Positions 11,090 through 45,841 are shown, numbered from the stretch's first letter. The stretch: 64,000 bases of DNA from a virus (IMGVR_UViG_3300011116_000574:1-64000); one strand, 5' to 3'. The notes: a model not told the origin generated them from the sequence alone. A program made the numbers and translations.

Positions 11090-11093
11090 CTAA

Positions 11094-11170: not shown

Positions 11171-11247
11171 GAATCTTTTTATTACAAGGTTCTTTGTTGC
11201 GTAATAATTATATAAATTGTATAATGTTATAGATAAAAAGGATAAAA

Positions 11248-27939: not shown

Positions 27940-28190
27940 TATTCACAGGTTATCCACACATGTTGATAAACATAAAGTTAGTTACACTAAAGCATAGCTT
28001 TATCCACAGGTAATAACAAGTTATACACAACTTATCCACAATAAATGCACCCGTATTGGAATTAAATATAATATTAGACAAGCTAATTAGATATATGTGT
28101 TATGGAGCATAACATATTAACCCTCGTAATGTCAAGTATTTTGACCAAAATTGTACCAAAATTGTACAAAATTTGTATAAAATGACTGCT
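27940..28190. promoter_or_regulatory. DnaA-box cluster with AT-rich iterated repeats (candidate replication origin)
   Basis: TTATCCACA at 27950, 28000, 28032; TTATACACA at 28021; TGTTGATAA at 27961; TTGTACCAAAA-like tandem repeats at ~28140-28184. Confidence 0.65.
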
Positions 28191-28507
28191 TTTTGCTTGA
28201 AAACAAGCTATTTTGCAGAGATTTTATACGATGTTCGTAATGTTGTATTTATATAGCCCACCCGCCCCCACATATATGTATATTTATTTTGATAGACATT
28301 CCAGAGATTTTTTTGGGGGGTTCGTAATAGGGGTTATATAGCGGGCGGGACAAAAAATATATTAGGGCATAGAGAAACCCCCTAGATCTACCGCTTATCT
28401 AGGGGGCTATATTATAGACTTGGCAGAAATAGCCTGAACGCCTATGTATGTTCTATTATACTATTAGATATATTAGATGTCAAGGGAGTTTTTAATTCCC
28501 CCGACTT

Positions 28508-28750
28508 TTATAGTTTCATCTGGTCGCATAAGTCGCCGATAGTTCCCATTGTACCTGGTCTAGCCAGACCACGCCGTTGGCGTTCTGCCATTAGATTGAC
28601 ATACTCTGTGATAATCTCAAAGAATTGCCAATTCACTTCATCTGTTTCTACCGAAATGGCGGAAGCAAACAAAAATGGAGAGAACCTACTATCGTGTACC
28701 GCTTCAACCAATGCTGAAACTGCTTTACCTGTTTTATCTCTAGTGGACAT
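28508..28750 (-). CDS. hypothetical protein
   Basis: AAGGAG SD and TGTC-N12-TACACT promoter. Confidence 0.7.
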   Translation of the reverse strand: MSTRDKTGKAVSALVEAVHDSRFSPFLFASAISVETDEVNWQFFEIITEYVNLMAERQRRGLARPGTMGTIGDLCDQMKL

Positions 28751-28804
28751 ACTTCTCCTTATTTAGTTGTGACCTACAAGTGTACCATACATTACCGACA
28801 TAAA

Positions 28805-29164
28805 TCAAGCAATTCTTACAATTTTGTCATCGCTGCGTACAACAATTTTTGGAGCTGTAACCTTTTCACACTCACACCAAATCATATGTTGAGAGCATGC
28901 TGCACAGTTTACAAAGCCTACTTTATAACCTTCCTTGGTATACCCATAAAGGCTTCTAGCTTCACGCTGTAGGGTTTGTGGCTTTAGCCTGGTACTTTTA
29001 GTACCCCCAAAGTCTTTTACTTTATTTAGCTTTAATTTAGGTTGATCGTCATCGAACACCCCATCATATTTAGCTAATTCAATTTTCATTAGGTCGTTAA
29101 ATCGACCACGCTCGCCCACGGTGAATCCTAGGCTTCTTAGATATTCTCGTTTAGTCATTGTCAT
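28805..29164 (-). CDS. Lsr2-like DNA-binding protein with C-terminal Cys cluster
   Basis: REYLRSLGFTVGERGRF resembles the Lsr2 RGR AT-hook domain; CAAC...CEC. Confidence 0.6.
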   Translation of the reverse strand: MTMTKREYLRSLGFTVGERGRFNDLMKIELAKYDGVFDDDQPKLKLNKVKDFGGTKSTRLKPQTLQREARSLYGYTKEGYKVGFVNCAACSQHMIWCECEKVTAPKIVVRSDDKIVRIA

Positions 29165-29235
29165 TTCCATTTCTAATAGTCTTACCAAATATGATAGCTG
29201 TGGGTAATCCCACAGCCAACCATATAACTAAATAC

Positions 29236-29703
29236 TTAAGCATTTGTTGCTTCCCAATTCTCGTCATCTTTAATAAATTCTACTGCCCAATCTACAGCCT
29301 CATAGAACGCACCATGTACTTCACCTTCTGGCAGCACATCATCGTTCCATACTTCCCACCAAGGGTTATTTTGGTAGATATCAATTCCTCGTTCGTTCCA
29401 CCACAAATCATATAACTGACCCAAATCAAAGTCGGTCTTAGCAAATCGTTCTAGGTCATCGGTGTAGCGGCACACATTAATATCATGCTCTACCCATTGA
29501 CCTGGGTTATCCAAATCTTCGGCGGGAATTGAAATACGCATCTCTCCATTACGAGCTACATGAAGTACACGATCCTTATACTCTACTAGGGCAAATGTTT
29601 CACAATCATTTGAATAGGTATAAAACTCTGCAAACTGCTTATCTTCATATACAATCTCTGTATAGGTAATAGTTACATCATCTCGGTATTCTTTAAGTTC
29701 CAT
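29236..29703 (-). CDS. acidic hypothetical protein
   Basis: SD AAGGA; NNPWWEV motif. Confidence 0.7.
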   Translation of the reverse strand: MELKEYRDDVTITYTEIVYEDKQFAEFYTYSNDCETFALVEYKDRVLHVARNGEMRISIPAEDLDNPGQWVEHDINVCRYTDDLERFAKTDFDLGQLYDLWWNERGIDIYQNNPWWEVWNDDVLPEGEVHGAFYEAVDWAVEFIKDDENWEATNA

Positions 29704-30052
29704 TATAGGTTATTCCTTACTGTTGATATAGCACTAGCATACCCGTTATGCCAAGCTTTGTCAAGGTCTATTTCTTGATAATCCCCTGCCTCTAAAAGTC
29801 TATCCCAATTCTTTGCATCTTGCTCTTCTATTTCTTTAAGTACGGCAAACATATGTTCAATTAATTCATCTTTAGTCATTTGTAAACTCCACAGTAATAT
29901 AGTCCATTAGTTCGTTTTCATTAGATAGATTAGTTATATCTGTACAGAAAGCTTCTTTAGCATACTGTACTAATTCTTCTTCTGTCATATCTTCTACATC
30001 AATTGGCTCAAAGGCGGGATTGATGTAAAAAGTAATAGATGTTTTAAGTACT

Positions 30053-30385
30053 CTATTCATTGATTAACTCCAAATCTTCGTGTGTAAGGAATAGGCAATT
30101 TGCATCAATTTCAAAGTAGTAGCCTGTATCTCTGATGATTAAATTAAACCAATCATACGCCCACTCTGCTACTAACATTAAGTCTTCAAGGATAGACTCA
30201 TCACCAGGATAGTCATCTAATTGGTTTTTAAGTTCTTTCCAATCTTCTACATTTAGGGTCAAGCCAAAGTGTAGGGCTGTTTCAACAAGTTGAATATCGA
30301 ACTCTTTACCGCTCATATTAGTGCCGTCAATCCAGCAACCTAATTGTTCTTCTGTTACATCATTTAAGTCATATATTTTCTGCAT
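30053..30385 (-). CDS. acidic hypothetical protein
   Basis: First gene after repeat 30406; leaderless after TACCAT. Confidence 0.65.
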   Translation of the reverse strand: MQKIYDLNDVTEEQLGCWIDGTNMSGKEFDIQLVETALHFGLTLNVEDWKELKNQLDDYPGDESILEDLMLVAEWAYDWFNLIIRDTGYYFEIDANCLFLTHEDLELINE

Positions 30386-31130
30386 ACCCAATGGTAGCAT
30401 AAGTTCCAGAGAAAATCAAGGGGTTTCGTAATAAAGATCTAAAAATTTATCGGGTCCACCCGCAACCCCAATTAAGGGGCTGGAGCAAAGAAAGTATTAT
30501 CAAAAGCTTCGTCAACAGCATCACAGATACCACTTACAATAAAGTCAATGGCGTGTTCCTCATCTCCGATATCTAGGCTATCTAAATACTTTGCTATGTT
30601 GTCATATATATTACTCTTTAGTTCATCATACATTATTTGATCTCCTTATTGGATTTGTGCGGTAAGGGTACTTGGGGGGTGTGCAAAGAAAGCTTCATCA
30701 AAGGTATCTACAATAACCTGACATAGGTCATCATATACCCACTGCCTATCAACATCTAGATATTGTGACTGAACGGTATCCATATAAGATAGGATATTCT
30801 CTTGCAACTGTTCTCTTAAGTCATTTAGTGTCATTTGATTTTCTTCTTTCCAATAGTTACTGACGGATATACATTATAGAAATGTTTGACAAACTCAAGA
30901 GCCGTATCCCACTGCTCTAATTCAATACCTGTATCATTATGCATTTCAACTAGGTCATCTGCTAGTCGTTCTAATAATCTTAAGTCAATTAGTTTACTCA
31001 TATAGATACTATCTCCGTCTCAAACTCGTATAAATCTTCACCGTGATAACTACACCACGCATAATAACCGTCACTTACATCAAACAAAGAAACTTCATCT
31101 TTGCACCTACGACATACGATAAGTTCTTCT

Positions 31131-31304
31131 TTACTCATCTTCATCATCTTCCGTTACATACTGTTCATCTACATCAATGGCATACACTTCTGAGAAATTT
31201 GTATAATCTTCCCACTTCCAGCCCTCTGCTTCTGCTTCTGCAATATTATCTGCTTCCACTTCATAGTTAAACTTAACTGTTACTTCTACATCATACTTAG
31301 GCAT
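31131..31304 (-). CDS. small acidic protein, VEA..EA family (not in ORF track)
   Basis: MPKYDVEVTVKFNYEVEADNIAEAEAEGW...; coupled to upstream ORF. Confidence 0.65.
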   Translation of the reverse strand: MPKYDVEVTVKFNYEVEADNIAEAEAEGWKWEDYTNFSEVYAIDVDEQYVTEDDEDE

Positions 31305-31718
31305 AAGACACTTCCTCTATTTCGGTTGAATAAGAAAATTCTAGTGGAGCAAAGCCACACCAGTCTTTTAGAAAATCATTGGCTTTTTGTACTATTACTT
31401 GCTCTTCATAAATCATATCGTCTAGCGAACCCCTAGAGTTAATATTTACTAACTCTAGGTTGTCTACATCTACGGTTGTAGATAAAACAAAATAGTCTGC
31501 GATAAATGTTACTTTATATGAATTCAATTTCTACTCCATTGTTTTGGTAATCTACTGCTTCATCTTCGTGATATACATTATGACCCTTTGCCTCAAAGTA
31601 GTCAAACATATCTTCATAGTCTACACCATCAGGGTCGGCGGTGTCAAGAATAAATTGGTTATATTCTTCTTCATCTAACTCTATAGTATAAGTATGTAGC
31701 ATAGCCACATCATATGTT

Positions 31719-31901
31719 TTAACTAACCTGATAGTCATTGTATTCCCCCCATAGAATTTCATCTGGAATTGTTTCCATAGTGTCAAGATTGACGATAGTA
31801 TGTCCGTCTACAAAGTATTGGTTGTCACGATACATTGTTTCTGCTTCCTCAAATGACTCTGCTTCAACAAATGCTGTGATAGTAATTTCATATTCTGCCA
31901 T
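31719..31901 (-). CDS. small acidic protein, VEA..EA family
   Basis: MAEYEITITAFVEAESFEEAE; GAGG SD. Confidence 0.7.
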   Translation of the reverse strand: MAEYEITITAFVEAESFEEAETMYRDNQYFVDGHTIVNLDTMETIPDEILWGEYNDYQVS

Positions 31902-32321
31902 TTTGTTCCTCTCGGTAGTTGATACATCAATGGTATCAGATAGGTCAGACATAATCAAGTATAATCTCGGAGATTTTTTAGATCCTTCGTAATTAGAGCT
32001 TTAAAGGCGGGCGAACCCGAATACCCCATCTAATGATAGATGGGATACTCAAGGCGATCTAAGATAGTTGCAATTTTTCCTTGACAATATTCTGCAATCT
32101 TCTTTGCTTTATCTAAATCTTGAACAGTCAAGTCAAACGAGTTGTCTGCGTACTGCTCTGTTTCTAATCCATATTTCATAGCCTCAAACATACCAGCCAA
32201 CTGGTGCTTGGAACTTGGGGTTGTAATTGTTACAATCATTTTCTGTTTTCTCCTAGTTATGTGAAAGTGGGGTTTTTATTGTGGTTATCCCCAGCCACAG
32301 TTTACCTACCTACCCGTAGAG

Positions 32322-32789
32322 TTAGCCCTCGTTACAATAGACGACAAAGGTATCGTAGTCTTGGATTTCGTAGTCAGAGTTTTCGCTGATGATGTCAAAC
32401 GAGAAGTCGTGACCCTCTACGCTATCTGCATCAGTACCGACTGGTAGTGTCATTGTAACCGAGAAAGTTACATTTACATCAACGGTTGCTTCATTGGTTA
32501 GTTCAATGTCAAGCAAGCGAGCAATTTCATCTGCGTGGTCGCCTAGTTCATCATAGTTTTCAATTAGGTAGTCACGAACATTGTCAATTCTACCCTCTAA
32601 CTTGGTGTTGCGACTTGCTAGAATTGCTTTGTTGCTGTAAAGAGAAGTGACCTCGTGTGCTTCAAGGACTTTTGGTGTTACGCCTGAATAAACAGGCTGA
32701 TGTGTATTCACCACAATCTTGGCGTATGGGTCATAAGTTAGTTCGTCTGTTACGGTTTCGGTGCTTGCGTGTTTTGGTGCGTATGTCAT
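32322..32789 (-). CDS. acidic hypothetical protein
   Basis: AAGGA SD and cassette promoter. Confidence 0.75.
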   Translation of the reverse strand: MTYAPKHASTETVTDELTYDPYAKIVVNTHQPVYSGVTPKVLEAHEVTSLYSNKAILASRNTKLEGRIDNVRDYLIENYDELGDHADEIARLLDIELTNEATVDVNVTFSVTMTLPVGTDADSVEGHDFSFDIISENSDYEIQDYDTFVVYCNEG

Positions 32790-32948
32790 TTGTTTTCCTT
32801 ATCGGGTAGTTGTTATTACAATAATACACTATGGGGGCGACATAAATCAAGTAAAAGTCCAGAGATTTTTGAAGCTTTCGTAATTGACTTATCCAGGATC
32901 GGGATAACCCGCACCCCCCACAAAAGTGGGGGGTGGAGATTTACCTAC

Positions 32949-33716
32949 CTACTCAACCTCAAGTTCATCAAGTTCAGCAATACGCTTTTCGGCTAACAAT
33001 CTAAATGGGCAATCATCAAATAACCACTCTGACTGTGCTTCTAATTCATCTTTAGGTAGGGTTAGGATTTGTTGAGTTGTGTATTCATCAACTTCCCCCC
33101 ACACACAAGCGGTACAAGGTATGTCAAGTGCCATAAAGTCTGCGTGACTAGGGCTATCTACAAACTGGTCAGATACAAGTACGCCACCTGCGTAATGTAA
33201 CTTACCTGCAAAGAAGTTGGCTTCCTCTGTAATCTCATACTCAAACTCAAGATTAGGGAAACGCTCTGCCATAGCGTCATACGCTTCTACGGCTGGCGAC
33301 CAAGCGGTATCAAAAGACCAGTTAAAATACCAGTTACCGTCATTACGCTGGTCAAGGGTTATGTATTCTCGGTCTAAGGTTTTATCCCACTTAGTACCCC
33401 AGTTACGAACATTCCAATCGTACCAATGATTAGATACGGCTAGTTTATGCTCTATCTCTGGCAAAGATGAATTGAAATCTGTGCTTGCGGAAATCTTGAT
33501 TTTGCTTTGTGAGGCAAAGTATTCGTCAAGGATTTCGGCTGGCGGTGTAATAAAGTTCCAAAAAACACCTTTATCATTTTCATCTAAAACATTTGTATCT
33601 GTCTGATAGTCATAGTGATTAGATGTATGTGGCTTATCGGCAAAGTCTAGAAACTCGTTGAGTTCTGCTTCTGTCTTGGCTGATACGATTACTGAATTGA
33701 AACACCAGTTTGGCAT
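32949..33716 (-). CDS. DUF1281/YubB ferredoxin-like protein
   Basis: MPNWC.N, WYDWNVRNWGTKW, FDTAWSP. Confidence 0.8.
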   Translation of the reverse strand: MPNWCFNSVIVSAKTEAELNEFLDFADKPHTSNHYDYQTDTNVLDENDKGVFWNFITPPAEILDEYFASQSKIKISASTDFNSSLPEIEHKLAVSNHWYDWNVRNWGTKWDKTLDREYITLDQRNDGNWYFNWSFDTAWSPAVEAYDAMAERFPNLEFEYEITEEANFFAGKLHYAGGVLVSDQFVDSPSHADFMALDIPCTACVWGEVDEYTTQQILTLPKDELEAQSEWLFDDCPFRLLAEKRIAELDELEVE

Positions 33717-33752
33717 TTGCTTGTCCTTTCGGTAGGTTGTTAGACTATCTTA

Positions 33753-33953
33753 TCAGTTTTCGGGGGTAGTGTCAAGAGAAACTTCAACACCATCCCAATC
33801 ATAAATTGAATTTGTTGAAACCTGCAATGGCTGAAATGTTGGATCTGTGTTAGCCCAGTTTTCTGCGATAGTTAGTGCTTCATCATAACTGTCTGCTTCA
33901 ATGTGAATTTCATCTGAAACTGTGTAAGTTAGGTATGCGGTGTATGTTGACAT
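33753..33953 (-). CDS. small acidic protein, VEA..EA family
   Basis: MSTYTAYLTYTVSDEIHIEADSYDEALTIAE; AGGAG SD. Confidence 0.65.
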   Translation of the reverse strand: MSTYTAYLTYTVSDEIHIEADSYDEALTIAENWANTDPTFQPLQVSTNSIYDWDGVEVSLDTTPEN

Positions 33954-34204
33954 TTTTTCTCCTGTTGGTAGTTGGTTTGTAGTATGTGGGGGACTGGTCT
34001 TTAGTTCTAGAATTTCAACCATTTTCTCGTACCGTCTAGTGGTATTAGCCCCACATACATTATCTAGTGTACACTATGGGTCAGACATAATCAAGGATAA
34101 TTCCAGAGAATTTTTGGTAGCTTCGTAACTAGGGTAATTATGGCGGGTCAACCCGATCAAAAAAATTTTGTCAAATTTACTTGACAAACCCCGAAGGGCT
34201 GGGG

Positions 34205-35197
34205 TTATACCCCAGCCACTTCAGTTACGATTGACAACAGTTTATTTTTTTCTGCGTTCACAACAGGGTCAAAACCTGCTGTTCCCATAAGTAGACTTTC
34301 GTCATTACCGCGAGAAGTTCTGAACCAATCAAGGCGTTCGGTTAAAGCGTTGTACGCACCCCAAGCGTTGCCAGCAATCATACCGTTGGTATCGCCAACA
34401 TAGATTTCCTCTAGCAATTCAATCTTGTTTTCCCATTTCTTTACAGCACCCTTTTTGTCTGCTTCTGGCATTGGGTATGCAAGCGAAACAATCTGGTCAA
34501 ACTGTGCCTTGCTGATTTCAGTTTCAATCATAGCGTGTGCAAGTTTATCAAACTCATCAAGGTATGCGTTAGCAAGACCTAATGCTTCGCGAGCCTGTGC
34601 AACTCTACCGTCAATGGACTGCGTGTGTCGCAACTTGAAAGATTGGTTAGCACCCTTGCGGAATACTGCGGTGTGAGTATTCATACAGGTTAGGCGGATT
34701 GGTGTAACAGTAGCCTGAACAGCACTAGAACCATCGTGGCTCGTAGAGATAGCAAGGTAGTTCTTGACAACATCACGAACACCATTAGGGTCAAGTACGG
34801 TTTCACGCTCTAGGGCTAACGCACCGAAAACGATACGACCATTTTTCAATGAACCAGCAACTTCCCAACGACCACCGTCAAGTAGGTTATCGCCAAACGC
34901 AAAAAGTTCCTCGTTCTGTAAAGTTTTGTAACGCTTGCCCACAACTGACAAAACATTTGAGTGCTTGTCCTCTGGGTGGTCACGCACAACAAGAAAGTTC
35001 TCGGCGGTCATAGAATAGTTATCAGGTAATGGGATTTCCTCTAAGCGAACATTCCAATTATCTAGGTTTGCTAAAGATAGCATTTCAGAAGTAGTAACTT
35101 CATTTTGGAACACAGTTCCAAGTTGGTGGTAGGCAGGTGTACGCAGGGAAGCGTAAGAAGCCTGACCGTTGATGATTTCAATTTGGTCAATTGCCAT
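34205..35197 (-). CDS. DUF932 phage/plasmid-like protein (TIGR03299-type)
   Basis: PAYHQLG, YKTLQN, AGSLKNG, SHDGS, TPIRLTCMNT, RHT, NAWGAYNALTE. Confidence 0.88.
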   Translation of the reverse strand: MAIDQIEIINGQASYASLRTPAYHQLGTVFQNEVTTSEMLSLANLDNWNVRLEEIPLPDNYSMTAENFLVVRDHPEDKHSNVLSVVGKRYKTLQNEELFAFGDNLLDGGRWEVAGSLKNGRIVFGALALERETVLDPNGVRDVVKNYLAISTSHDGSSAVQATVTPIRLTCMNTHTAVFRKGANQSFKLRHTQSIDGRVAQAREALGLANAYLDEFDKLAHAMIETEISKAQFDQIVSLAYPMPEADKKGAVKKWENKIELLEEIYVGDTNGMIAGNAWGAYNALTERLDWFRTSRGNDESLLMGTAGFDPVVNAEKNKLLSIVTEVAGV

Positions 35198-35347
35198 TTA
35201 TTTCTCCTAAGTTAGATTTACCTACTAAGTGTAACACAGGGCTATGACATAAATCAAGGATTATTTTATTTAATCTCGGAGATTTTTTTGCCCCTTCGTA
35301 ATTGGATACGAAAGGGCGGGTCAACCCGCAGCTGCGGGTTTGTCAAG

Positions 35348-35421
35348 CGATCTGAACGGGACTTGAACCCGCAACCTCCGCCGTGACAGGGCGGTGCGCT
35401 AACCAATTGCGCCATCAGACC
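35348..35421 (-). tRNA. tRNA-Asp(GUC)
   Basis: Reverse complement GGTCTGA...CCGCC-CTGTCAC-GGCGG...TTCAAGT...TCAGATC-G. Confidence 0.93.
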
Positions 35422-35536
35422 AAGAAATGCGGGGAGATTTGCAACTCTCCCCGCACCCTGTTATGTTTATTAAATCTATCTATACACTCACCAAGCAATA
35501 ACATACAAAATGCTAGGCTACTGTTTTCTTGGCACT

Positions 35537-36007
35537 TTACCAAGAAGCCTGATACTCAAAATAATCAAACTTAGAAGCAAGGCAACGGTCAATTATTGCA
35601 ACCGTTTCTTTCAGGTCTACAAAATAGTATTCGTCATACTCGGTTGAACCAAAAAAGAAACCTGCACCTGTTGGCAAAAGTTCTGATGCCAAACTATTGT
35701 CGGCAAGAACCTGCTCACATAGAGATTTCAATTCCTCTAAATTCTCACGAGTAACAAACATTTTCTGACACTCGTCAATGCCATTACCAATAGTTTCAAC
35801 AAACCAATTATGGATTTGATTTGACTTACGCCAATAACCCATAGGGAAGTCAATAGAGATACCGCCAAAACTATCTTTAGAAACTTGGTCGGAAACACCA
35901 AACTGCTCTACAATCTGGTAAAACAATTCGTTGCGGTTGTCGTTATCGTTATCCCAATCGTATCGGGAAATGTATTCGCTTGCTGATAGGTATTGGTCTA
36001 ATCCCAT
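35537..36007 (-). CDS. conserved phage protein (MGLD...YWRK.NQIH.WF family)
   Basis: Recognisable motifs including GFFFGSTEYDEYY. Confidence 0.75.
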   Translation of the reverse strand: MGLDQYLSASEYISRYDWDNDNDNRNELFYQIVEQFGVSDQVSKDSFGGISIDFPMGYWRKSNQIHNWFVETIGNGIDECQKMFVTRENLEELKSLCEQVLADNSLASELLPTGAGFFFGSTEYDEYYFVDLKETVAIIDRCLASKFDYFEYQASW

Positions 36008-36186
36008 TTAGAACTCCTTATTTGTTGGTAGGTAAAAAGTGTATCAGATTATTTAGTTATTGTCAAGGGTTTGTGAGCCTTGCCTGTCACTTGCCGTAGT
36101 TTCGTATCTAGCCCCCACACATCTAGTGTTGTTACTAGGGGAACGCAAGCCGTTAGCCGTTTTATTACACTCACACCCTTGCTAGA

Positions 36187-36339
36187 CTACTTTACAGTTG
36201 TCCAGCGGTCTTGACCATTTACATCAAGACGAACACGCAAAGAGCCATTTGCGTTTGCGACAATCTCTTTTACGACACCCGTAACCTTAGACTTTTCGGT
36301 GGTTAGAGTATTGCCAACTTCAATAGATGATTTATCCAT
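36187..36339 (-). CDS. small SH3/KOW-like protein, divergent paralog
   Basis: VGNTLTTEKSKVTGVV...RVRLDV...RWTTVK, similar to 43042/44144/44828. Confidence 0.7.
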   Translation of the reverse strand: MDKSSIEVGNTLTTEKSKVTGVVKEIVANANGSLRVRLDVNGQDRWTTVK

Positions 36340-36978
36340 TTTGCTTCCTTTCGTAGTTTGTCTTACAAGTTTAGCATAGGGGTAGGACAAAAATCAAGGA
36401 TTATTGCTCAAGTTTTTCAATTAGTTTGTGGTACAACTGAACAAGTAATTCGGCATCATAATCTTCATAGGTGTCTACCCACTCAAGCAGTTCGTCTTTG
36501 CAGTGACGAATACCGTCTGCAAAACCATCTTCATAGTTACTCATAGCAACTCCTTTCGTTTCACATAGACTACCATACAATAGATAAAAAGTCCAGAGAA
36601 AAATAGGCAGCTTCGTAATTGACAAACCCCGAAGATCGGGGTATCCCGATCCCCCCAGAATTGGGGGGCGGGAATTAAAGTTCCTTATCGTGCTTTTCCC
36701 AAGCAATTATAGAACTAAAGATAAGACCTATCATTGAAAACACAAAGCCGACAACACACACACCAATTAGAACATCTAACATTAAGACCCCAACTTTTCT
36801 ACAAGCATTTCCTCATAGTCTACATAGTCTGCTTCCATTAGTTCATCATTGAAATGCCATACCTGATGATTGGGGTCAAATGCAACACCTTCATTTTCAA
36901 ATTTTACCATTGTGGTGTCAATGTCAATCTCAAACTTATCTGTGTCCTCATCATAAAAAACTACAAAATGATACTGCA

Positions 36979-37146
36979 TTATTCTACTTCCAATCCATAA
37001 ACATCATACTCAAAATGCTGACTGACTATTTTTAGGTCGTCTGCCATAAGTTCGTCAAAAATCTTTATGGCTTCCTCTTGTGTGTCGGCTTCTATGATGT
37101 CCTCAAACTCGGTTACTCGTTTAGATGAAAAATAATAATTTGGCAT
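36979..37146 (-). CDS. small acidic protein, VEA..EA family (not in ORF track)
   Basis: MPNYYF...IIEADTQEEAIKIF. Confidence 0.6.
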   Translation of the reverse strand: MPNYYFSSKRVTEFEDIIEADTQEEAIKIFDELMADDLKIVSQHFEYDVYGLEVE

Positions 37147-38774
37147 TACACCACCTTTTCCAAAATCTTAGTTAGTTGTTCTAGTGCTTCTGGCGATAGT
37201 TCATCTACCGCTTTCCAATCTATAACTGCTTCCCAATCTATCATTACTGCCCCACTCCAAAATCTGTTGCTACAATTTCAACTGCTTCATCAAGACAGTC
37301 AATTAGATTTGCTAATTGTTCTGGGGTCAAATCCTCTACCATAAAACTAGGTAATTCGGACTTCCACGCTATCTGTGAGCGGTAAGTATTGCCACACTCG
37401 GCACATTGTTCTGACATTTGTTTTCCTTTCGGTAGGTTTATGTTTCAATGGTACACCATAGGTCAGACATAAATCAAGGATAATCCAGAGAAATTTTAAG
37501 TGTTTCGTAATTGACAACCCCGCAGCAGCGGGGTACCCCGAAGGGTGGTAGATCTAACTACCCCACTCTATGCTTACTTGGGCGGAACTACCAAATAGTG
37601 CCTGGACAAAACCATTAGCATAGTAACGGTGGTTCTCGTTATCTTTATCAAACTCAAATGGAACCTTGCTCAAAAACTCTTGCCAATGGTGGTCTATGTC
37701 CTCTGAATAGACAGACCAGTTACCCTCGCGGTATTGGCGACTAATAGTTGCTCTCATCTTATCCCCCAAATAATTCGTTTAGTTTGTCAATGTCGTTGCC
37801 GTTCACAATTTCACGCACTTTTTCAGAAACACCGTCAAACTTGCGAACAAAGTAATCGCCTGTGTCACCGCTTATGCTGTATGTGACAGACTTGGCTTCT
37901 GTTGTGTGTTGTGTGTTGTTGTACATAACATCTGAACCAAACTCTAGACGACCAATAAAGTCAATCATACCTTCGGTAGTAATGTCAGAAAGACCAAAGC
38001 CGTATTCACCTGTTTCCAACATCATACGGATAATGTCTGTTTCATCATAGGTTGTTTCAATTCGGGCGGTAATTTGATAGGTCATTAGTTTATTTCCTTT
38101 TCATAGTTGATGATTGTAAATGATTTTGTTTCCTCGTTGTAAATACACTTTACCATAAAAGTCATACAATGTAAAGAGATTTTGTAAGTTCTTACTTCTA
38201 GGTCATAAAAAAAGTTGTCGCCCTCCCATTCAATAGGGCAAGCGTTCCAAAGAAGTTCGTGCATAAAACTATCTTTGGATACAGGTTCTAATGTTTCTAG
38301 TAATCGTTTCATTTGGCTCATACATAAAGAATAGCAGGTACATCTGACAAAATCAAGAATAATTCCAGAGATTTTTTGGCAGCTTCGTAATTTACATTAC
38401 GAAAGATCGGGTTATCCCGCACCCACCCCAAAGGGTGGGCGGTGGATTAGAGCCACTCTGTCAAATCACCATCACCATAGTAATCTTGCTTATGACCATC
38501 TGCTTCAGCAATTACTTCCCAAAGTTCATCTTCGGTAAAATCGCCATCTGGATACCACTCTGCTAGTAATTCATAAACTGCTTTATCCATTAAAATAAAT
38601 CCTCTACTTCCTCTACTGAATAGCCGTGAGCAAACCTATGAGCAATTACAATACGCATACTGTCGGTTGCTTCGTCAATCGCTTCCCACATTTCCTCTGT
38701 CCAATCATTGGTGTCTAGCAAGAGAATGCCCTCGCCATCACCATAGTTTCCGTCTGTTGCGAAATAATGTCCCA

Positions 38775-39104
38775 TTACACTTCCTGCCAAATCATCATAC
38801 TCTCAAACGAGTAACCATTTACTGTATTTTTAGTTAGGTCAATCTCTACCCACTCTGACCAATTATCAAATGTGACTTTAGGATTTACGGCAAAGATACC
38901 ATAACCTGTTTCATCAAGGATTTCATTTTGGATTAGGTGTGAAATAACCATACGAGTCCAATAAGAGTGGTCGCCTATTCGTGGTTGTGCGTGGCGAATT
39001 GCTTGGGCTAAATCGTGTTCCCAACTGTCTGCCCCCCAATGTGAATAAAGTGCGACTGCGTGGTCAGTTCCGTCATTGAATACAAAGGTTACTCTAGCAC
39101 CCAT
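38775..39104 (-). CDS. conserved hypothetical phage protein
   Basis: MGARVTF...LYSHWG; conserved leader AACCTACCGAAAG. Confidence 0.7.
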   Translation of the reverse strand: MGARVTFVFNDGTDHAVALYSHWGADSWEHDLAQAIRHAQPRIGDHSYWTRMVISHLIQNEILDETGYGIFAVNPKVTFDNWSEWVEIDLTKNTVNGYSFESMMIWQEV

Positions 39105-39939
39105 AATTTTCTCTCTTTCGGTAGGTTGATAAATCAAGTGTAGCAGTCTTGTCTGACATTTTCAAGGATAATTCCAGAGATTTTTGAACATCTTCGTACT
39201 TGACAACCCCGCAGCAGCGGGGTATCCCGCCTTTCGGCGGGGCTTTAATGGTTATTCCCAGAAGTCCTGTATTTCAGACAAGTCGTTGATACTTTCAATG
39301 TTGGCTCGCTCATAGCATAGGTAAAGCGTATTTAGTAAAGCGTGACCAATCATAGAAGCGGTGTCATAAGAAGCCAAATCTGCTTCTGTTAGATAATCAA
39401 AGTCAAATTCTTTTTCTGTTTCTGATAAAGCAAATAGGTATTGCTCTACAAGAGTTTCAAAGTCAATGAACATCTTGCCCTCGTGAACCATTGAATTTAG
39501 TTCGCCGTCTGCTATAAACATTTCTTTCCTTTCGGTAGGTTATGTAATAATCTTAGCACACATTACCGACATTTTCCAGAGAAATTTTAACTAATCGTAA
39601 ATAAGCTGAAAAAGATCGGGGTAGCCCGAAGACCCAGTTTGTCAAACTGGGTCGCAGGTGGTGTAGAAAAATTGGATACTATCCGCAGGAACATAAATTA
39701 TTTCATCACCTGTTTTTGTTTCAAAAGATAGTAATCCGTTTTCAATACGGAAAGCATTGTCTGGGTGAACATCTGGGAACTCATAGGGGTTAGCAATTCC
39801 GTTTGGTTGTTCTTTGTAGACAATGTGTAAGTTAGTTTGAAATTCCATTTAGTAGTCCTCTTTCGCTTCTGGTACACTAGCACCGCATAGCATACAGGTT
39901 GGGTTGGTTCTGTCTGTTACATTGACAATCGGGTGAACT

Positions 39940-40155
39940 TTACACTCTTTCATTTTTCAATAACGCCTTTCGCTCGTCACCGAGTAGACCGCCATAAATA
40001 CCGTCTACACTTTCATTTGAGAGTGCGAACTCTAAGCACTCTGATTTTACAGGGCAAGCGTTACACAATGACAACGCCAACGCCCTATCTTTTAGTTTGG
40101 CACTAAAAAAGATTTCTGGGTCTGCCTCTAAGCAATTTGCCTTATCCTGAAACAT
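39940..40155 (-). CDS. whiB: WhiB-family transcription factor (early)
   Basis: ANCLEADPEIFF...CNACPVKSECLEFAL...GIYGGL. Confidence 0.92.
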   Translation of the reverse strand: MFQDKANCLEADPEIFFSAKLKDRALALSLCNACPVKSECLEFALSNESVDGIYGGLLGDERKALLKNERV

Positions 40156-40313
40156 AATCTGCCTTTCGTTTGTTGGTAATACTATTATGACACACGCCAC
40201 CGACATTTTTGGTAGCGACACGCACAATTTCAGAGATTTTTTTGGGGCTTCGTAATTTGACAAACCCCGAAGATCGGGGTACCCCGATCCCCCACGAAGT
40301 GGGGGCGGGAAGG

Positions 40314-40781
40314 CTAAAGTCCCAACCCTTCGGCAAGAGAGTTAGCAATTGCTCTAACCTCTATTGCCCAATGCTCTGATAAGTCATCTTCAAGCATCTT
40401 TTCTGATAAGTCAAAGAGTTGTTTTACATAGTCTGGAACGCTGTCAGGTTGTGTTACTAGGTCTTCATCTTCATCAAGCCAAGCATCATCTACATAGTCT
40501 TCATCATAGCACCAAGCGGATAGGTGGTGTTGTTCAATGATTGCCCAAGCAGGTGCGGTTGATTTACCATTTTTGTAGAATACACCTTCAGGCAGTTCAA
40601 TTTCTAGACTGCCATTGTCTTCATTGTAAGCGTTGATTGCTTCAATACAAGGCTGAACCATAGTCAATGGGATTGGTGGATAGTGATTGCTTGTTAGTTG
40701 AATAGCAATTTGCTGTTCAAGGCTAATGTCAATACCGTATTCTGATAGACTTGCTAAGTCGTTTGCTGTGTTGTTACCCAT
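40314..40781 (-). CDS. hypothetical protein
   Basis: NHYPP...CIEAI...IIEQHHL, acidic tail. Confidence 0.7.
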   Translation of the reverse strand: MGNNTANDLASLSEYGIDISLEQQIAIQLTSNHYPPIPLTMVQPCIEAINAYNEDNGSLEIELPEGVFYKNGKSTAPAWAIIEQHHLSAWCYDEDYVDDAWLDEDEDLVTQPDSVPDYVKQLFDLSEKMLEDDLSEHWAIEVRAIANSLAEGLGL

Positions 40782-41119
40782 AAGAGTTACCAACCTTTCT
40801 TGTGTTTTAGTTTGCGAGTGTAGGCTTTCTTATTTTTATGACCACCGCTTGCGTTGGAACGGCGTAATTCCAAGCGAGCCTGTAACTGTTCAGGTGTTGC
40901 CTGTGTTGCTGTAATCATTTTCTTTTTCATACCTAAAGAATAGCACACCTCACCGACAATTTCCAGCATAACCCAGAGATTTTTTTGGAGTGTCGTAATT
41001 TGACAACCCCGCTCTGGCGGGGTATCCCGATCAGCCAGCTTTGTCAAGTCGGCTGTCGGTGTGTCTAATCTTTTTCGCTAAGAATTATGGCGATAAATTG
41101 CAATAGCATATAAATTAGT

Positions 41120-41653
41120 CTATTCATGTGAACCCCTGTAAATTATCCAGATTAGTGCTTGTGTTGTGCGAGGTGTTAGCCCCATTGCCTTAGCAACATC
41201 TTTAACCGCTTGTGCCATTTCGCGGTATTGTGTTTTATTTGGTGCATTGGTATCTAGTCCACCTGCGTAGCACATCCATACATCTATCGTTACCGCATTT
41301 TCATCGCCAGCAATTGCACGAGCGAACGCATTAGTTTTTAAGCCTTTAAGTGCATTGAACCCTAGCACTAAACTATTTTGTGCCATAACTAAATTGTTTT
41401 TTAGTCCTGTCGCTTTTCCTGTGTGTGCGAATTCTAACGCTTGCACAACATTTCTTGCCCAACGCTGACGAGGTGAGAATGATGAAACAACACTAGCACC
41501 ATTTTCAATAGTTGCTTTTATGCCACGACTAGCAAGAATACGCACAACATCGTGTGCCACTAATTCTGCATCTGCATACCATTGCGTAGCCAATTCAATT
41601 TGGGTAGCGGTTGCCTTTTTTGCAATTGCGAGGTAGTGGTTGAAGTAATCCAT
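41120..41653 (-). CDS. conserved phage protein, possible HhH-GPD/glycosylase-like fold
   Basis: WY, SPRQRW..N, KT..F, VTIDVW, QALIW motifs. Confidence 0.55.
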   Translation of the reverse strand: MDYFNHYLAIAKKATATQIELATQWYADAELVAHDVVRILASRGIKATIENGASVVSSFSPRQRWARNVVQALEFAHTGKATGLKNNLVMAQNSLVLGFNALKGLKTNAFARAIAGDENAVTIDVWMCYAGGLDTNAPNKTQYREMAQAVKDVAKAMGLTPRTTQALIWIIYRGSHE

Positions 41654-41779
41654 TTTTGCTCTTTTCGGTAGGTTGTAGTAATACTGTACCAGATACCGCC
41701 GACATTTTCCAGAGAAATTTTAGGCGTGTCGTAACTTGACAACCCCGCCTTGGCGGGGTACCCCGAAGGGTGGTGGGAA

Positions 41780-42076
41780 TTAGTTTTCCCAACCAAACAA
41801 AGAGCCTTCCGCATAGTCATCAATCATGTAGTCCATGTCACCAGAACCAAAAATAGCGTTCCAACAGTCACCGCAAGTACCTGTAATAAAGCGTTCACGA
41901 ACATCAACATCAAAATCAGATAGGACATCTTGAACATAAGCACCTTGATTGTATGCGTACAGTTTTTCAGGGGAAATCTGAATAGTGATAGTTTCATCAC
42001 AGGTTGGGCAAACCTTAGAAGTAACTGAATAAGCGGATAGGTCGGCGGTCTTGACAATGTTATTTAGAGTGAACAT
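41780..42076 (-). CDS. small zinc-ribbon protein
   Basis: CPTC...RERFITGTCGDCW. Confidence 0.75.
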   Translation of the reverse strand: MFTLNNIVKTADLSAYSVTSKVCPTCDETITIQISPEKLYAYNQGAYVQDVLSDFDVDVRERFITGTCGDCWNAIFGSGDMDYMIDDYAEGSLFGWEN

Positions 42077-42195
42077 TTTTTCTCCTTTAGGTTAATAGTT
42101 TTATTGTAGCATAACGCCCAGACATTTTCTAGAGATTATTTTGTGGTGTCGTAACAAGGCGAAGCTTGGCGGGGTACCCCGCAGGGTGATTGGGA

Positions 42196-42417
42196 TTATG
42201 CATCCCAACCAAAAAGGTATCCCTCAAAGCCCCTGTCCTCGTCACCCTCGTCAACTTCACAGACACACTCGTCTGTGCCACCGCAACTTGGGCATTCGTT
42301 GTCGTAGTCGTAGTCAGAGTATGGGTCATAAGTGTCAAGCAAAGCCTGTGTCCTTTCATCCTCAAATTGGTTATTCCAGATTTCCATCATTGTTTCGGCG
42401 GTGTAGAACTCATCCAT
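42196..42417 (-). CDS. very acidic Cys-containing small protein
   Basis: CPSCGG..ECVC; D/E-rich; ends LFGWDA like neighbour LFGWEN. Confidence 0.7.
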   Translation of the reverse strand: MDEFYTAETMMEIWNNQFEDERTQALLDTYDPYSDYDYDNECPSCGGTDECVCEVDEGDEDRGFEGYLFGWDA

Positions 42418-42749
42418 AGGTACTCCTCAAGGTTAGGTTGATAAAATAATTGTAGCAGGGTGCGGTGACATTTTTCAGAGATTTTTAAGGGGTGTCGTAA
42501 CAAGGGTTGGAGATCGGGGTACCCCGAAGGGCTGTGCTTGTCAAGCCGACACGCCTACAAGACATTGTATGTTGCTAAAAAAACAAAAAGAGGGGAAAAA
42601 CAAATAAGCAACATCAGAGGCAGGTCAAAACGGTATGCCTTGCCATTTGTTTTTTCATAATTATCTAGTTCAATAGCACCTAACCAACTAAAACCAAAGG
42701 TAATAAGTGATAGTGCCGAAGCGATTAAGATTGTTTCCATTTTTTCTCC

Positions 42750-42890
42750 TTATGAGTAGTAATCGGCTAGAGTGTCAAAGTCTGAATAATAGGCAGGGTC
42801 ATCATAAGCACCATAGCATTCTGGGCAAAGTAGGTTGCCATTGTTTCCAACATAGTCCATTTCAATTTCGCAAAATACGCAAAGTTCCAT
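42750..42890 (-). CDS. acidic zinc-finger micro-protein (not in ORF track)
   Basis: MELCVFC...LCPECY; GGAG SD; cassette promoter. Confidence 0.65.
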   Translation of the reverse strand: MELCVFCEIEMDYVGNNGNLLCPECYGAYDDPAYYSDFDTLADYYS

Positions 42891-43041
42891 TTTTATCTCC
42901 GTTCGTTATGCTTCAATTTTAACACAGGCTACTGACATTTTTCCAGAGATTTTTTGAGTGTGTCGTAACTTGACAAAGATCAAAAACGGGGTACCCCGCA
43001 GGGGTCGGCGTGTCAAGTCGACACGCCGAGTGTCTTGTGAA

Positions 43042-43194
43042 TTACCGCAAGGTAATCCATTTTGTTTCGGTATCAGTTTCCACCAATACACGAACAATTT
43101 TATCGCCACTCTTGGTGGTCTGTTCTGCTACATCTAGGGCAACACCTGATGTGTTACCGCTTGCTGATGTTACTAGGTCTCCGATTTTTACCAT
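43042..43194 (-). CDS. small SH3/KOW-like protein, paralog (not in ORF track)
   Basis: MVKIGDLVTSASGNTSGVALDV...KIVRVLVET...KWITLR; AAGGAG SD. Confidence 0.8.
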   Translation of the reverse strand: MVKIGDLVTSASGNTSGVALDVAEQTTKSGDKIVRVLVETDTETKWITLR

Positions 43195-43770
43195 TTGGTT
43201 CTCCTTTAGTTTGATGTTGCTATTGTAGCGGATAGGTCTGACAATTCTTGATTTACTCCGTCAATTTCTCGCTGTAAAGTTTCGGTGAGTTGTCGCTTTC
43301 CAAAGCCATTATCTAAGCCAATGGATAAAAGATAACCAACCTTTATCCAACCGTGTAGGCGGTCAGCGGTTCTTGGGTATTTTATTTTATCCAATTCATA
43401 CACAGCATTTACTAATTCCTCAGAAAGGTCTGCGAGTAATTTTTTGTCTGTCATTTGTTTCTCCATTTCGTTTGATGTTTTAATTTTAGCACGAGCCACC
43501 GACAAAAATTATTTTTGAGTTGCTTTTGCGATTTGTGCTATTTTTTTGGCATCTGCTTTACGCTGTTCGTCACGCTCTGCTTTTACCATTTTTTTCCAGT
43601 CATCAAAATTCATTTTTTCTCCTATTGGGTTGGTAGTTCTATTATGACAGACACCACCGACATTTTTCAAGGATAACTCAGAGATTTTTTGGGCGTGTCG
43701 TAACTTGACAAAGATCAAAAACGGGGTACCCCGCCCACCCCACTTTGTCAAGTAGGGTGGGGTCTTTGGG

Positions 43771-43944
43771 TTAGAACGGAACTTCATCCCAAAGGCTTTC
43801 CTGCTCACGCATTTCATCATAGAAAAAATCAGGGTCGCACTCTGGACACATAATCATCTCGCACTCGCAAGGGATGCCGTCAAACATCCAATCTGGAGAT
43901 GAGGTCTTGAAACTGACAGGGGCGGTGAAATCAAAATCTGACAT
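43771..43944 (-). CDS. acidic Cys micro-protein (not in ORF track)
   Basis: MSDFDF...CECEMIMCPECD...EVPF. Confidence 0.6.
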   Translation of the reverse strand: MSDFDFTAPVSFKTSSPDWMFDGIPCECEMIMCPECDPDFFYDEMREQESLWDEVPF

Positions 43945-44143
43945 TTTGAGCCTTTCGGTTGGTGAATACTAAAATTGTAACACAGGGGGCAGACATAAAT
44001 CCAGAGAAAAATAAGGTGTGTCGTAACTTGACAAAGATCAGAAAACGGGGTACCCCGATCTAATCCAGAGATTTTATTTTATCATCGTAACTAGAAGAAT
44101 AAGCTGCCCCGCCAGGGGCGAATTTTTTCGCTGTTGAAGTGGA

Positions 44144-44329
44144 TTACCGTAGGGTAATCCATTTCATTTCGTTACTGTCAGTTTCCACTAACACGCGAAC
44201 AATTTTTTCACCAGACTTAGTGGTGAAAGGTTGAACATCAACCGCCACGCCTGAAGTGTTGCCACTCGCAGAAGTGACGAAATCGCCAACAGTTACATTT
44301 TCCAATAATGCTTCAAGAATGTTACCCAT
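44144..44329 (-). CDS. small SH3/KOW-like protein, paralog
   Basis: VGDFVTSASGNTSGVAVDV...KWITLR. Confidence 0.8.
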   Translation of the reverse strand: MGNILEALLENVTVGDFVTSASGNTSGVAVDVQPFTTKSGEKIVRVLVETDSNEMKWITLR

Positions 44330-44383
44330 TTTTATCTCCTTTGTTTATGTTTCAATTGTAGCAGGGGGGACTGACAAAAATTA

Positions 44384-44524
44384 CTAATGTAATTCTGAAC
44401 AGTCTTTCATAGTACCGTCAAGCAGATACTCTACGCAATAACCGCAAACTGTGTTTAGGTCACATACAGGGCAAGATACCCACTCTGACCACTCATCACA
44501 AAACATTGAACAATAATCTAACAT
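44384..44524 (-). CDS. Cys-rich micro-protein (not in ORF track)
   Basis: MLDYCSMFC...CPVC...CGYC. Confidence 0.6.
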   Translation of the reverse strand: MLDYCSMFCDEWSEWVSCPVCDLNTVCGYCVEYLLDGTMKDCSELH

Positions 44525-44827
44525 TTGAACCTCTTTTCTTTATACCAAAATTGTACCACGCACCACCGACAAAAATTGAAACGACACGCCCAAACCCAGA
44601 GAATTTGACAAGGCTTCGTAACTGTGATAAAATTTTTGCCCCTGGCGGGGCGAAATTTTCGCCCCACTTTTTTATCGGTCTTTTAGAATTCCAAAAGCGA
44701 TTACGAATAGGGCTAGGGGTACGAACATTACGAACTCTGAGTGAATAAAGTTGTGTAGCATTTTATCTCTTTTCTTTTTGGTTATGGAATTAGTTTAGCG
44801 GATAGGTGTGACATTTTTTGAGGTGGA

Positions 44828-44983
44828 CTACCGTAGGGTAATCCACTTCAATTCGTTATCTTTAGTTTCAACCAAAACTCTAACGATTTTTTCGCCAGCC
44901 TTAGTTGTCATAGGGTTCACCTCTACGGCTACGCCTGAAGTGTTGCCACTTGCCGATGTTACCAAATCGCCGATGTTTGTCAT
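44828..44983 (-). CDS. small SH3/KOW-like protein, paralog
   Basis: MTNIGDLVTSASGNTSGVAVEV...KWITLR; AAGGAG SD. Confidence 0.8.
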   Translation of the reverse strand: MTNIGDLVTSASGNTSGVAVEVNPMTTKAGEKIVRVLVETKDNELKWITLR

Positions 44984-45652
44984 TTGCGACTCCTTTTCTT
45001 TTTGTTGATAAATCAATAGTACCATACGCCACCGACATTTTTTGACAGACACGCCGACAAAATAGATCCAAATTGTATACAATGTTTTTTGCGACACGCC
45101 GTCAGAGAATTTGACAACCGCTCGTAAATAAGCTAAAATTTTTGCCCCTGGCGGGGCGAAATTTTTTCGCTATTTTTTTCGGCGGGCGATTATGATTTTT
45201 CCTCGCTCTCTTTACTATCTGCACACGCAGAATAAATAAATACGAATGGCATTGATGCGAATACGATTACGGATACGGTTAGGGTTATGTTTAGTAGTGT
45301 TAGCATTTTTTCTCTTTTCGTTAGGTTGATGTTTCAATTGTAGGGGATAGGTACGACATTTTTACCAATTAGGTTTCATACCCTTGTGAGTGTCGCAAGT
45401 GTTTCCTGTACCTTGTTGGATAGGGCAGAAACAAATTACACAAGCAATTTGAACGGCGTTAGGGGTAACTAGGGCTAGTTCCAATTCAACGCTATCGGCG
45501 AATGATAGTTCGCTACTGTCAATCTGATTTTCACCATTTACGATTTTGATGTATCCCATTTTTTTCTCTTTTCTTTTTCTTGATGTTTCAATTGTAGCGC
45601 ATAGCACCGACATTTTTTGACAGACACGCCAGAGATTTTTGCGGGGCAAAAA

Positions 45653-45668
45653 TTGAACAAATGTTCAA
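45653..45668. promoter_or_regulatory. palindrome matching the GAAC-N4-GTTC LexA core
   Basis: TTGAAC-AAAT-GTTCAA at the divergence point of the early region. Confidence 0.45.
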
Positions 45669-45841
45669 ATTGGCGGGGCAAAAATTTTACCATAGGGGTA
45701 TGACAAAAACGGTTAGCGACACGCCGAAAATAAAAAAACATTGGATACAATCTTTTTTCAAAACACTAGCCAAAATGCCCAAAAATGTCGGCGGTATGTG
45801 TTACCATTGATGTATCAACAAAAAATGAAAGTAGGTTCAAA

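Follow-up and report, generated by a model that had tools for sequence, protein, structure and literature searches.

A repeated hairpin, box and promoter-like module lies between reshuffled cassettes of small early genes in an uncultured siphophage

In T4-like phages, early promoter and stem-loop elements known as PeSLs join a strong early promoter, A/T-rich in its upstream part, to a stem-loop in which a run of G often precedes a run of C (PMC2839356, PMC4122927). Some ~50 copies are concentrated in hyperplastic regions, where neighbouring genes have no known function, and these copies give rise to indels, replacements and mini-circles (PMC2839356, PMC4122927). Another class of repeated intergenic element is the stoperator of cluster A mycobacteriophages, which is asymmetric, multi-copy, bound by the L5-type immunity repressor and oriented according to transcription (PMC9283540). 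In this study, we analysed a stretch of 64,000 nucleotides of viral DNA (IMGVR_UViG_3300011116_000574:1-64000, hereafter the window), which is the first 64 kb of one 100,657-bp phage contig. We focused on an array of small-gene cassettes in which a bipartite box is repeated between cassettes, together with hairpins and promoter-like sites. We conclude that the repeated module is a PeSL-like mobile regulatory cassette with an extra, helically phased upstream box. The PeSL kind of element was already known; its occurrence in this phage group and host is new, as is the extra box, which is asymmetric, conserved and phased.

On the transcribed (minus) strand, the box reads TTACGA-N12-14-TCTCTG. It was found in 19 exact and 4 one-mismatch copies in the 100,657-bp genome; these 23 copies are all co-oriented on the minus strand between 28216 and 45127, and none lies elsewhere (Table 1). 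Searched as CAGAGA-N12-14-TCGTAA, the pattern gave 19 exact matches in the window, on a single strand, against a mean of 0.01 in shuffled sequences. An initial annotation of the window had described an array delimited by about 23 copies of a fixed-geometry element; the number was recovered, and the whole-genome count extends the confinement of the motif to the complete contig. The right end of the array, which had been set at 45690, holds for the promoters and not for the box: the last box ends at 45127, and it is box-less promoter-like sites that continue beyond.

The box is asymmetric. TTACGA is followed by 7 nt, an A5-6 tract and TCNCNG, and the spacer falls into a few sub-types (e.g. CACGCC.. 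and AGCTGCC..), an indication that the copies share descent. Read on the transcribed strand, a gap usually contains, in this order, a gene-specific GC hairpin, a short conserved hairpin, the box, a promoter-like site and a Shine-Dalgarno sequence, followed by 1-8 small genes.

The conserved hairpin is found upstream of the box, at a distance of 14-19 nt from TTACGA, in agreement with the near-fixed spacing noted at the outset. Its type depends on the position in the array: from left to right, it is first CGGG-N4-CCCG, then CGGGGTACCCCG and lastly GCCCC-N4-GGGGC, and a third interlocking arm is sometimes present. The array holds 18 of the 19 genome matches to CGGG-N4-CCCG and 8 of the 8 copies of CGGGGTACCCCG. 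This drift with position had been described in the initial annotation, as had the interlocking repeats, the ACTTGACA...TGTCAAGT brackets (e.g. 43704-43753) and the shortening of the interval between copies, which falls from ~1-2 kb to 0.3-0.7 kb; all were visible again. Folding of the 77 nt upstream of the boxes gave a mean energy of -25.5 kcal/mol, vs -13.4 for random windows of the array. In a terminator scan, a GC stem-loop with a U run fits at 43718-43746, 42986-42999 and 39616-39629, and many hairpins have only a short or interrupted T run. The hairpin core differs by lineage, being GGTACC-like here, GCAC in the relative L113, and GTCGAC or GCGAC in others. A core that is uniform within a genome and different between genomes fits frequent exchange between copies. 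As a separate observation, the conserved hairpins are perfect 12-nt palindromes embedding 6-bp restriction-type palindromes (e.g. at 42515-42526 and 42987-42998); the embedded palindrome is GGTACC here and GTCGAC in L107 and L108, and the linker is rich in GATC.

An extended -10 promoter is predicted after ~19 of the 23 boxes. The pattern TGTC-N12-TANNNT is present 25 times on the minus strand of the array, 7 times on the rest of the minus strand and 8 times on the plus strand; shuffled sequences give 12.7 per strand per 100 kb. TGn usually precedes the -10, and the -35 is often missing. TGTC, at -28, presumably occupies the place where PhoB-type activators sit in E. coli promoters. A generic sigma-70 promoter scan was dropped, as it showed no enrichment (65 sites found vs 54 expected), and so was a direct-repeat relation between TCTCTG and TGTC, a poor fit when judged by eye.

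The distances separating the box end from TGTC are not spread evenly. They cluster at 4-6, 14-18, 25-28 and 38 nt, with single values near 47, 61, 65 and 70-72, and fit 5+11n. In the genome itself, 15 distances gave R=0.81 at a 10.5-bp period, and pooling six genomes (56 distances) gave a periodogram peak at 10.75-11 bp with R=0.79. Measured from the start of TTACGA to the start of TGTC, distances were 18/19, 29-31, 40-42, 50-53, 63, 85 and 94-97, that is a 19+11n lattice (n=98 from 16 genomes or fragments, R=0.74 at 11 bp). This last set includes L114 and L117, which have ~60% DUF932 identity and no TCTCTG, and in which TTACGA is sometimes directly repeated at an interval of 11-12 bp. A lattice of ~11 bp would place box and promoter on the same helix face. 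This register with the core promoter, seen within the genome and across lineages, was taken as a sequence-level surrogate for function.

We also examined whether the box was conserved at orthologous positions, using the ten copies found upstream of the DUF932 gene (box 35277 and its counterparts in nine relatives). Mean column identity was 68%; among the columns without any variation are those of TTACG, TC.C, several A's, the TTG of the -35, TGTC and TG.TA...T. TTACGA is common to a clade of uncultured relatives, in which it is near-invariant (TTACGG in part of L113), and the A tract is retained. The second hexamer and the hairpin vary by lineage: TCTCTG is found in one genome set and TCAC[TCG]G in another, and TTACGA persists in relatives of ~60% protein identity that have no TCTCTG.

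Such conservation bears on the idea that the module is a selfish or neutral dispersed repeat, similar to repetitive extragenic palindromes (REPs) or miniature inverted-repeat transposable elements (MITEs), which duplicates and has no function. The spacer sub-families, the homogenisation of copies within the genome and the presence or absence of whole modules between conserved genes, as for module 32860 in the comparison with L113, are what one would expect of it. However, functional-looking positions are among the invariant orthologue columns, TTACGA has been kept in lineages where all its surroundings changed, and strict orientation and helical register argue for function, so that we regard a purely neutral repeat as very unlikely. 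The initial proposal of a protein-binding site as opposed to simple duplication should be divided: the invariant TTACG and TCNC and the 11-bp register give indirect support to the binding site, and the spacer sub-types show that the copies are related by descent.

The array was next compared with nine relatives by blastn and tblastn, and cassettes were found to have moved, to be swapped or to be missing. The two 3-gene cassettes flanking box 38366 are in reversed order in L113, the DUF7178 cassette has a different location, and L113 has the two genes that flank module 32860 without the module. The neighbour relations of conserved genes were then counted over the nine relatives, which are not independent of each other: 52 module gaps were kept and 48 broken, against 70 kept and 0 broken for the other gaps. 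For L113 alone, 9/17 module gaps were broken vs 0/19 other gaps. The cassette gain and loss with breakpoints at the element, which had been anticipated from the window, is observed as an outcome, and the module is most likely the breakpoint of cassette loss, gain and reordering between related phages.

One such event offers the most direct evidence. In a strain ~93-95% identical, represented by contigs of three independent metagenome studies, 42514 is joined to 42987 and 42515-42986 is skipped. The skipped 472 bp correspond exactly to one two-gene cassette between two modules, and the 12 letters common to both sides of the joint are the hairpin CGGGGTACCCCG. Single-gene replacements abut modules at 44382/44582 and 45167/45350, and one low-depth contig joins 43711 to 37528, both beside boxes. 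Several other joints, among them 41772/44332, 44364/43679 and 43029/42940, had sides of 32-59 letters and were set aside as probable repeat artefacts. Copies of the module have exact words of 16-40 nt in common, and with ~23 such repeats the module may well be a recombination substrate for the phage RecA or for slippage. Recombination between modules would then delete, insert or reorder whole cassettes, as PeSLs do in T4-like phages.

Could these exchanges be due instead to a dedicated site-specific system, i.e. an integron-like platform whose recombinase recognises hairpin and box? Cassette-wise permutation, loss and gain among relatives, a precise one-cassette deletion with its joint in a palindromic hairpin, and hairpin sequences homogenised per genome would all suit such a system, and a hairpin at fixed distance from a conserved word recalls attC or the ends of IS200/IS605. 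Yet families of integrases (tyrosine recombinases), resolvases (serine recombinases) and Y1 transposases gave zero matches above the family cut-off in the genome, which is estimated to be 81% complete: PF00589 had only an 11-bit match with internal stops, and PF00239 none. Every cassette has a promoter-like site of its own, the register with promoters points to a transcriptional role, and the single mapped joint lies in 12 identical letters, as for homology or slippage. Given that the joint falls within the hairpin, outside the box, that no recombinase was matched and that RecA is present, exchange among the repeated modules by recombination is a better fit than a dedicated site, which we hold to be very unlikely. 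The recombination platform of the initial annotation finds support, as an outcome, in the breaks confined to module gaps and in the 472-bp loss.

The array does resemble an integron attC array in its co-oriented small-gene cassettes, in the repeated structured site between them and in a content that varies among relatives. It differs in that no integrase was found, that cassettes each start with their own promoter-like site, that the attC architecture is lacking and that the two sides of the mapped joint are simply identical over the stretch in question.

The likeness to PeSLs is closer. Three of the four features that define PeSLs were found here, namely a composite of stem-loop and promoter, copies placed in a plastic small-gene region, and rearrangements bounded by the module; for the fourth, the mini-circle, the comparison covered assembled contigs only. 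In both systems, an intergenic G-run/C-run stem-loop accompanies an early promoter of the host type, whose upstream part is A/T-rich. Dozens of copies occupy a plastic region of unknown-function genes, they delimit the indels and replacements seen between close relatives, and the phage has its own recombinase. Four differences were noted. Here the host is actinobacterial and the phage a siphovirus unrelated to T4; the stem-loop is always upstream of the promoter, never within it; a box (TTACGA, A tract, TCNCNG) is added, with a fixed distance to the hairpin and an 11-bp register to the promoter; and the promoter, often without a -35, has its TGTC at -28.

The early regions of lytic phages gather anti-defence and host-takeover genes, and their wiring and exchange are known in detail for few model phages. 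A PeSL-like system is now described in an unrelated, uncultured and globally distributed freshwater group, which suggests that terminator-promoter modules acting as gene-shuffling engines are a general solution, beyond T4-like phages. The module also offers a natural case of cassette turnover between strains, and a handle on the factor that reads TTACGA.

In bacterial upstream promoter (UP) elements and class I activator sites, an A tract lies upstream of the -35, at allowed positions one helical turn apart, and the polymerase alpha C-terminal domain or class I activators dock near -42, -53 and -64. If the -10 is set at -12 to -7, the box has its A tract near -42, -53 or -64, and for this reason we read the box as an upstream promoter element on the polymerase face. 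The resemblance to UP elements concerns the A tract upstream of the -35 region and the positions one turn apart. It does not extend to the two GC-containing hexamers, which are outside any UP consensus, nor to positions that reach >70 bp upstream.

Our preferred interpretation, in which we have moderate confidence, is that each copy is a self-contained early-region regulatory module of an actinobacterial siphophage, made of one or two hairpins, an upstream promoter box and a host-type promoter, and serving in addition as a substrate for RecA or slippage. Control of early transcription is the most likely role of the module. One or two GC hairpins would end or attenuate the upstream transcription unit. 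The box, coming 14-19 nt later, would be an asymmetric upstream promoter element that acts as DNA, being bound on the helix face of RNA polymerase. The third part would be a host-type promoter (TGTC at -28 to -25, TGnTANNNT at -10), followed by a Shine-Dalgarno sequence and 1-8 small genes mostly without known family. A putative factor provided by the host, the virion or the early genes may read TTACGA and TCNCNG, and tune initiation at promoters set right behind a terminator. Repetition, restriction by strand and region, conservation in orthologues, phasing, rearrangement by cassette and the hairpin joint are observed directly. From the sequence we infer that the promoters and terminators are active, that a protein binds, and that it would either activate or repress.

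Several observations weigh against this interpretation. Ten array promoters of the same TGTC class are box-less, which makes the box dispensable for promoter recognition; these ten are those without a preceding hairpin, and the box is thus better viewed as an accessory of hairpin-flanked promoters, outside the core promoter. Boxes 44066, 28302 and 28216 have no promoter directly downstream, and the spacing of the box to the hairpin (14-19 nt) is tighter than its spacing to the promoter (5-72 nt). Linker sequence is common within a spacing class, so that the phasing statistic, inflated by common descent, rests on ~7-8 independent classes, all but one or two of which are on the lattice. Some ~40 array proteins were searched: nearly all are without known family, and, WhiB apart, a recognisable DNA-binding family was seen in none of them. 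As for the recombination part, module gaps are operon boundaries too, and selection for intact operons could alone explain the breaks at these places. Ends of blastn alignments are weakly enriched in modules for L113 (11/34, p=0.012), with no enrichment for remoter relatives.

The main rival is a stoperator-like role, in which the box would be the operator of a monomeric phage repressor or shut-off factor, blocking read-through in one orientation and silencing early promoters later, much as the L5-type immunity repressor acts at its own 13-bp sites. As in the published case (PMC9283540), the box is asymmetric, multi-copy, intergenic and co-oriented with transcription. More than 20 such sites lie in the short intergenic spaces of an actinophage, the host being actinobacterial as for L5. 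The box immediately follows weak terminator hairpins, a place at which a roadblock would be of use, and three copies have no promoter after them. In several copies TTACGA is preceded by the word GGGGTTGTCAAG, which may be akin to the L5 consensus. In contrast to stoperators, which are 13 bp long and genome-wide, the box is a bipartite site of 25 bp, restricted to the early block and phased with promoters, a register that would be unexpected if the box blocked elongation. The proteins searched include no member of a repressor-like family, although a divergent repressor is possible; among those of the array, neither a repressor-like nor a helix-turn-helix protein was seen, and an integrase, which would be a sign of a temperate phage, was not found. 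We consider a stoperator-like role rather improbable.

It has also to be asked whether the box could be an independent promoter for another form of RNA polymerase, TTACGA being -35-like and TCNCNG -10-like, which would set early and middle promoters in tandem. Its bipartite asymmetric shape, its fixed spacing and its place upstream of genes agree with this, and a lineage-specific second hexamer could co-vary with a phage factor. However, no known sigma class has a -10 with G and C together with a spacer of 13 nt, helical register is not needed between tandem promoters, and proteins of the required kind were not seen. Sigma-70 region 2 had no match above the family cut-off in the genome, and region 4 a single weak, sub-threshold one, to a protein with a helix-turn-helix that is encoded outside the array. 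A phage RNA polymerase was not seen either, the unknown 1021-aa protein resembling a lectin-fold structural protein and the 3281-aa one being the tape measure. We give very little credence to a second promoter.

Other known sites were compared with the box by eye, and the following were dropped for want of a fit in consensus or geometry: sigma-54, extracytoplasmic function (ECF), sigma-B and T7-like promoters, IHF and Fis sites, a DnaA box in the 16-nt linker and a type I restriction target. In the more distant relatives L099/L100 (G006) and L101 (G009), a CRP-like palindrome, TGTGAT..ATCAC, replaces the A tract in the spacer (G006 13848-13873, G009 15997-16021). A CRP site was dropped as a candidate, this palindrome being found in the spacer of these relatives (G6 and G9) only.

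A more far-reaching version of the regulatory interpretation is possible and is put forward tentatively. Hairpin and box together might be the cognate site of a putative trans-acting protein that co-evolves with the second hexamer and sets the whole early programme of this widespread freshwater actinophage clade, and the unit might also be a self-propagating 'plug' for gene capture. A candidate protein would be a two-domain monomer or response-regulator-like, coming from the host, the virion or an early gene without known family. If this were true, any gene captured with the plug would be both expressed early and exchanged, amounting to an integron-like capture without integrase. As a side observation, a 154-aa protein encoded at 9583-10047 (+) has a sub-threshold helix-turn-helix of the LuxR/GerE or HTH_38 type, and is among the few candidate DNA-binding proteins outside the array.

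The initial annotation had further suggested that the copies serve as loading sites during DNA entry, and none of the tests made gave support to it. As loading or stop signals for entry or packaging, the sites would have in their favour only their co-orientation and the terminal pair beside a cluster of DnaA boxes. They show no link to the genome ends and track intergenic gaps, hairpins and promoters, which makes this explanation the least probable of those considered, and a most improbable one.

Table 1. Position of the array, of the individual boxes and of associated features in the window. Promoters, hairpins and terminators are predictions.
Feature	Coordinates	Strand	Remarks
Array of 23 co-oriented modules (hairpin, box, promoter) between ~20 cassettes of 1-8 small early genes	28216..45127	-	
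Box, exact	45103..45127	-	TTGTCAA within spacer; hairpin of GCCCC-N4-GGGGC type; next TGTC promoter 65 nt downstream
Box, exact	44597..44621	-	promoter 25 nt downstream
Box, exact	44066..44090	-	followed by second hairpin and box, no direct promoter
Box, exact	44002..44026	-	promoter 6 nt downstream
Box, exact	43679..43703	-	terminator-like hairpin 43718-43746; TGTC 16 nt downstream; -10 CATAAT
Box, exact	42944..42968	-	hairpin 42987-42998, one side of the 472-bp cassette deletion
Box, exact	42476..42500	-	hairpin 42515-42526, other side of the 472-bp deletion
Box, one mismatch (TCTCTA)	42130..42154	-	promoter 5 nt downstream
Box, exact	41710..41734	-	interlocking hairpins upstream; promoter 5 nt downstream; DUF7178 gene follows
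Box, exact	40974..40998	-	promoter 15 nt downstream
Box, exact	40231..40255	-	cassette with WhiB gene follows
Box, exact (N12)	39577..39600	-	promoter 5 nt downstream
Box, one mismatch (GTACGA)	39175..39199	-	promoter 15 nt downstream
Box, exact	38366..38390	-	between two 3-gene cassettes, order swapped in L113
Box, exact	37486..37510	-	promoter 16 nt downstream
Box, exact	36594..36618	-	extended -10 at 21 nt downstream, without TGTC
Box, one mismatch (TCTCCG)	35277..35301	-	upstream of DUF932 gene; promoter 27 nt downstream; orthologues aligned in nine relatives
Box, exact	34104..34128	-	promoter 16 nt downstream
Box, exact (N12)	32860..32883	-	entire module missing at the orthologous gene junction of L113
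Box, one mismatch (TCTCCG)	31968..31992	-	promoter 16 nt downstream
Box, exact	30407..30431	-	-35-like TTGATT within spacer
Box, exact (N14), first of terminal pair	28302..28327	-	without GC tetraloop hairpin, without TGTC promoter
Box, exact, second of terminal pair	28216..28240	-	adjoins DnaA-box cluster; terminal pair or triplet in relatives too
25 TGTC-N12-TANNNT promoters, extended -10 type	28800..45705	-	strict pattern: 15/25 at <=80 nt downstream of a box, 10 box-less
WhiB-family gene in array	39940..40155	-	only transcription-related family found among array proteins

The phage has a siphovirus gene set, with the 3281-aa tape measure protein, portal, prohead protease and major capsid protein, and encodes DnaE, DnaB, DnaG, RecA and a Cas4-like nuclease of its own. 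Two WhiB-family genes are above the Pfam cut-off, with matches at 39961-40149 (-) and 23199-23372 (+), and the best match of the major capsid protein is to Streptomyces phages (54% identity). Together, these features point to an actinobacterium as the host. The second WhiB-family gene is at 23151-23471 (+), outside the array, and an AT-hook was seen in neither WhiB. A search of the genome contigs for the aminotransferase, made with the host in mind, gave no match.

Relatives were collected from IMG/VR via the portal and via the DUF932 gene of the array. The exact box pattern had 12 single matches in IMG/VR, of which 4 were true relatives and the others chance, and the exact box is absent from long-contig relatives with 70-83% portal identity. 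In remoter relatives (portal or DUF932 identity <=69%), the link between TTACGA and a promoter is rare. No close relative was found in the phage GenBank collection by megablast of the array or tblastn of the 1021-aa protein. Parts of the array are present in freshwater, lake and drinking-water metagenomes of 12 studies, with no RNA run among the sequencing runs listed, and the phage group probably infects abundant low-GC freshwater Actinobacteria. Portal-matching contigs placed in Bacteroidia, cyanobacterium and Dongiaceae bins were not used to assign the host, since their labels conflict; such disagreement indicates that these contigs are probably mis-binned phage DNA. Three related phage contigs, L123-L125 (67-110 kb, 55-69% portal identity), lie in Bacteroidia and cyanobacterium bins, a placement that probably reflects binning errors.

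Directly after the two terminal boxes, near the convergence of gene strands, we observed a cluster of 3 perfect and 2 one-mismatch DnaA boxes (TTATCCACA) within ~90 bp, beside three tandem AT-rich 11-mers (window 27950-28182). A single further perfect DnaA box is found outside the cluster in the whole genome. In L113, L112, L108 and L107, the terminal boxes are likewise followed by such a cluster, and the cluster is a candidate replication origin.

RecA is encoded at G000 97062-98066 (L002 13062-14066) and the PD-(D/E)XK or Cas4-like nuclease at G000 98944-99726 (L002 14944-15726); both genes adjoin those for DnaB, DnaG, DnaE and a pyrimidine-dimer glycosylase. The contig ends (G000 1-38 and 100620-100657) repeat ~38 nt with one mismatch, which suggests a circular assembly or terminal redundancy; the record itself is classed as linear. 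At the left end of the window (1-18800, +), a sugar-modifying block comprises genes for two nucleotide-sugar epimerases, several glycosyltransferases and a DegT-type aminotransferase; the large terminase subunit gene and five tRNA genes are scattered through it. A tRNA-Asp gene is found within one early cassette (window 35347-35421, -), and metagenome depth shows a spike there because bacterial tRNA genes match too. Finally, a tmRNA was called by ARAGORN at 18929-19168, a call that lacks Rfam confirmation.

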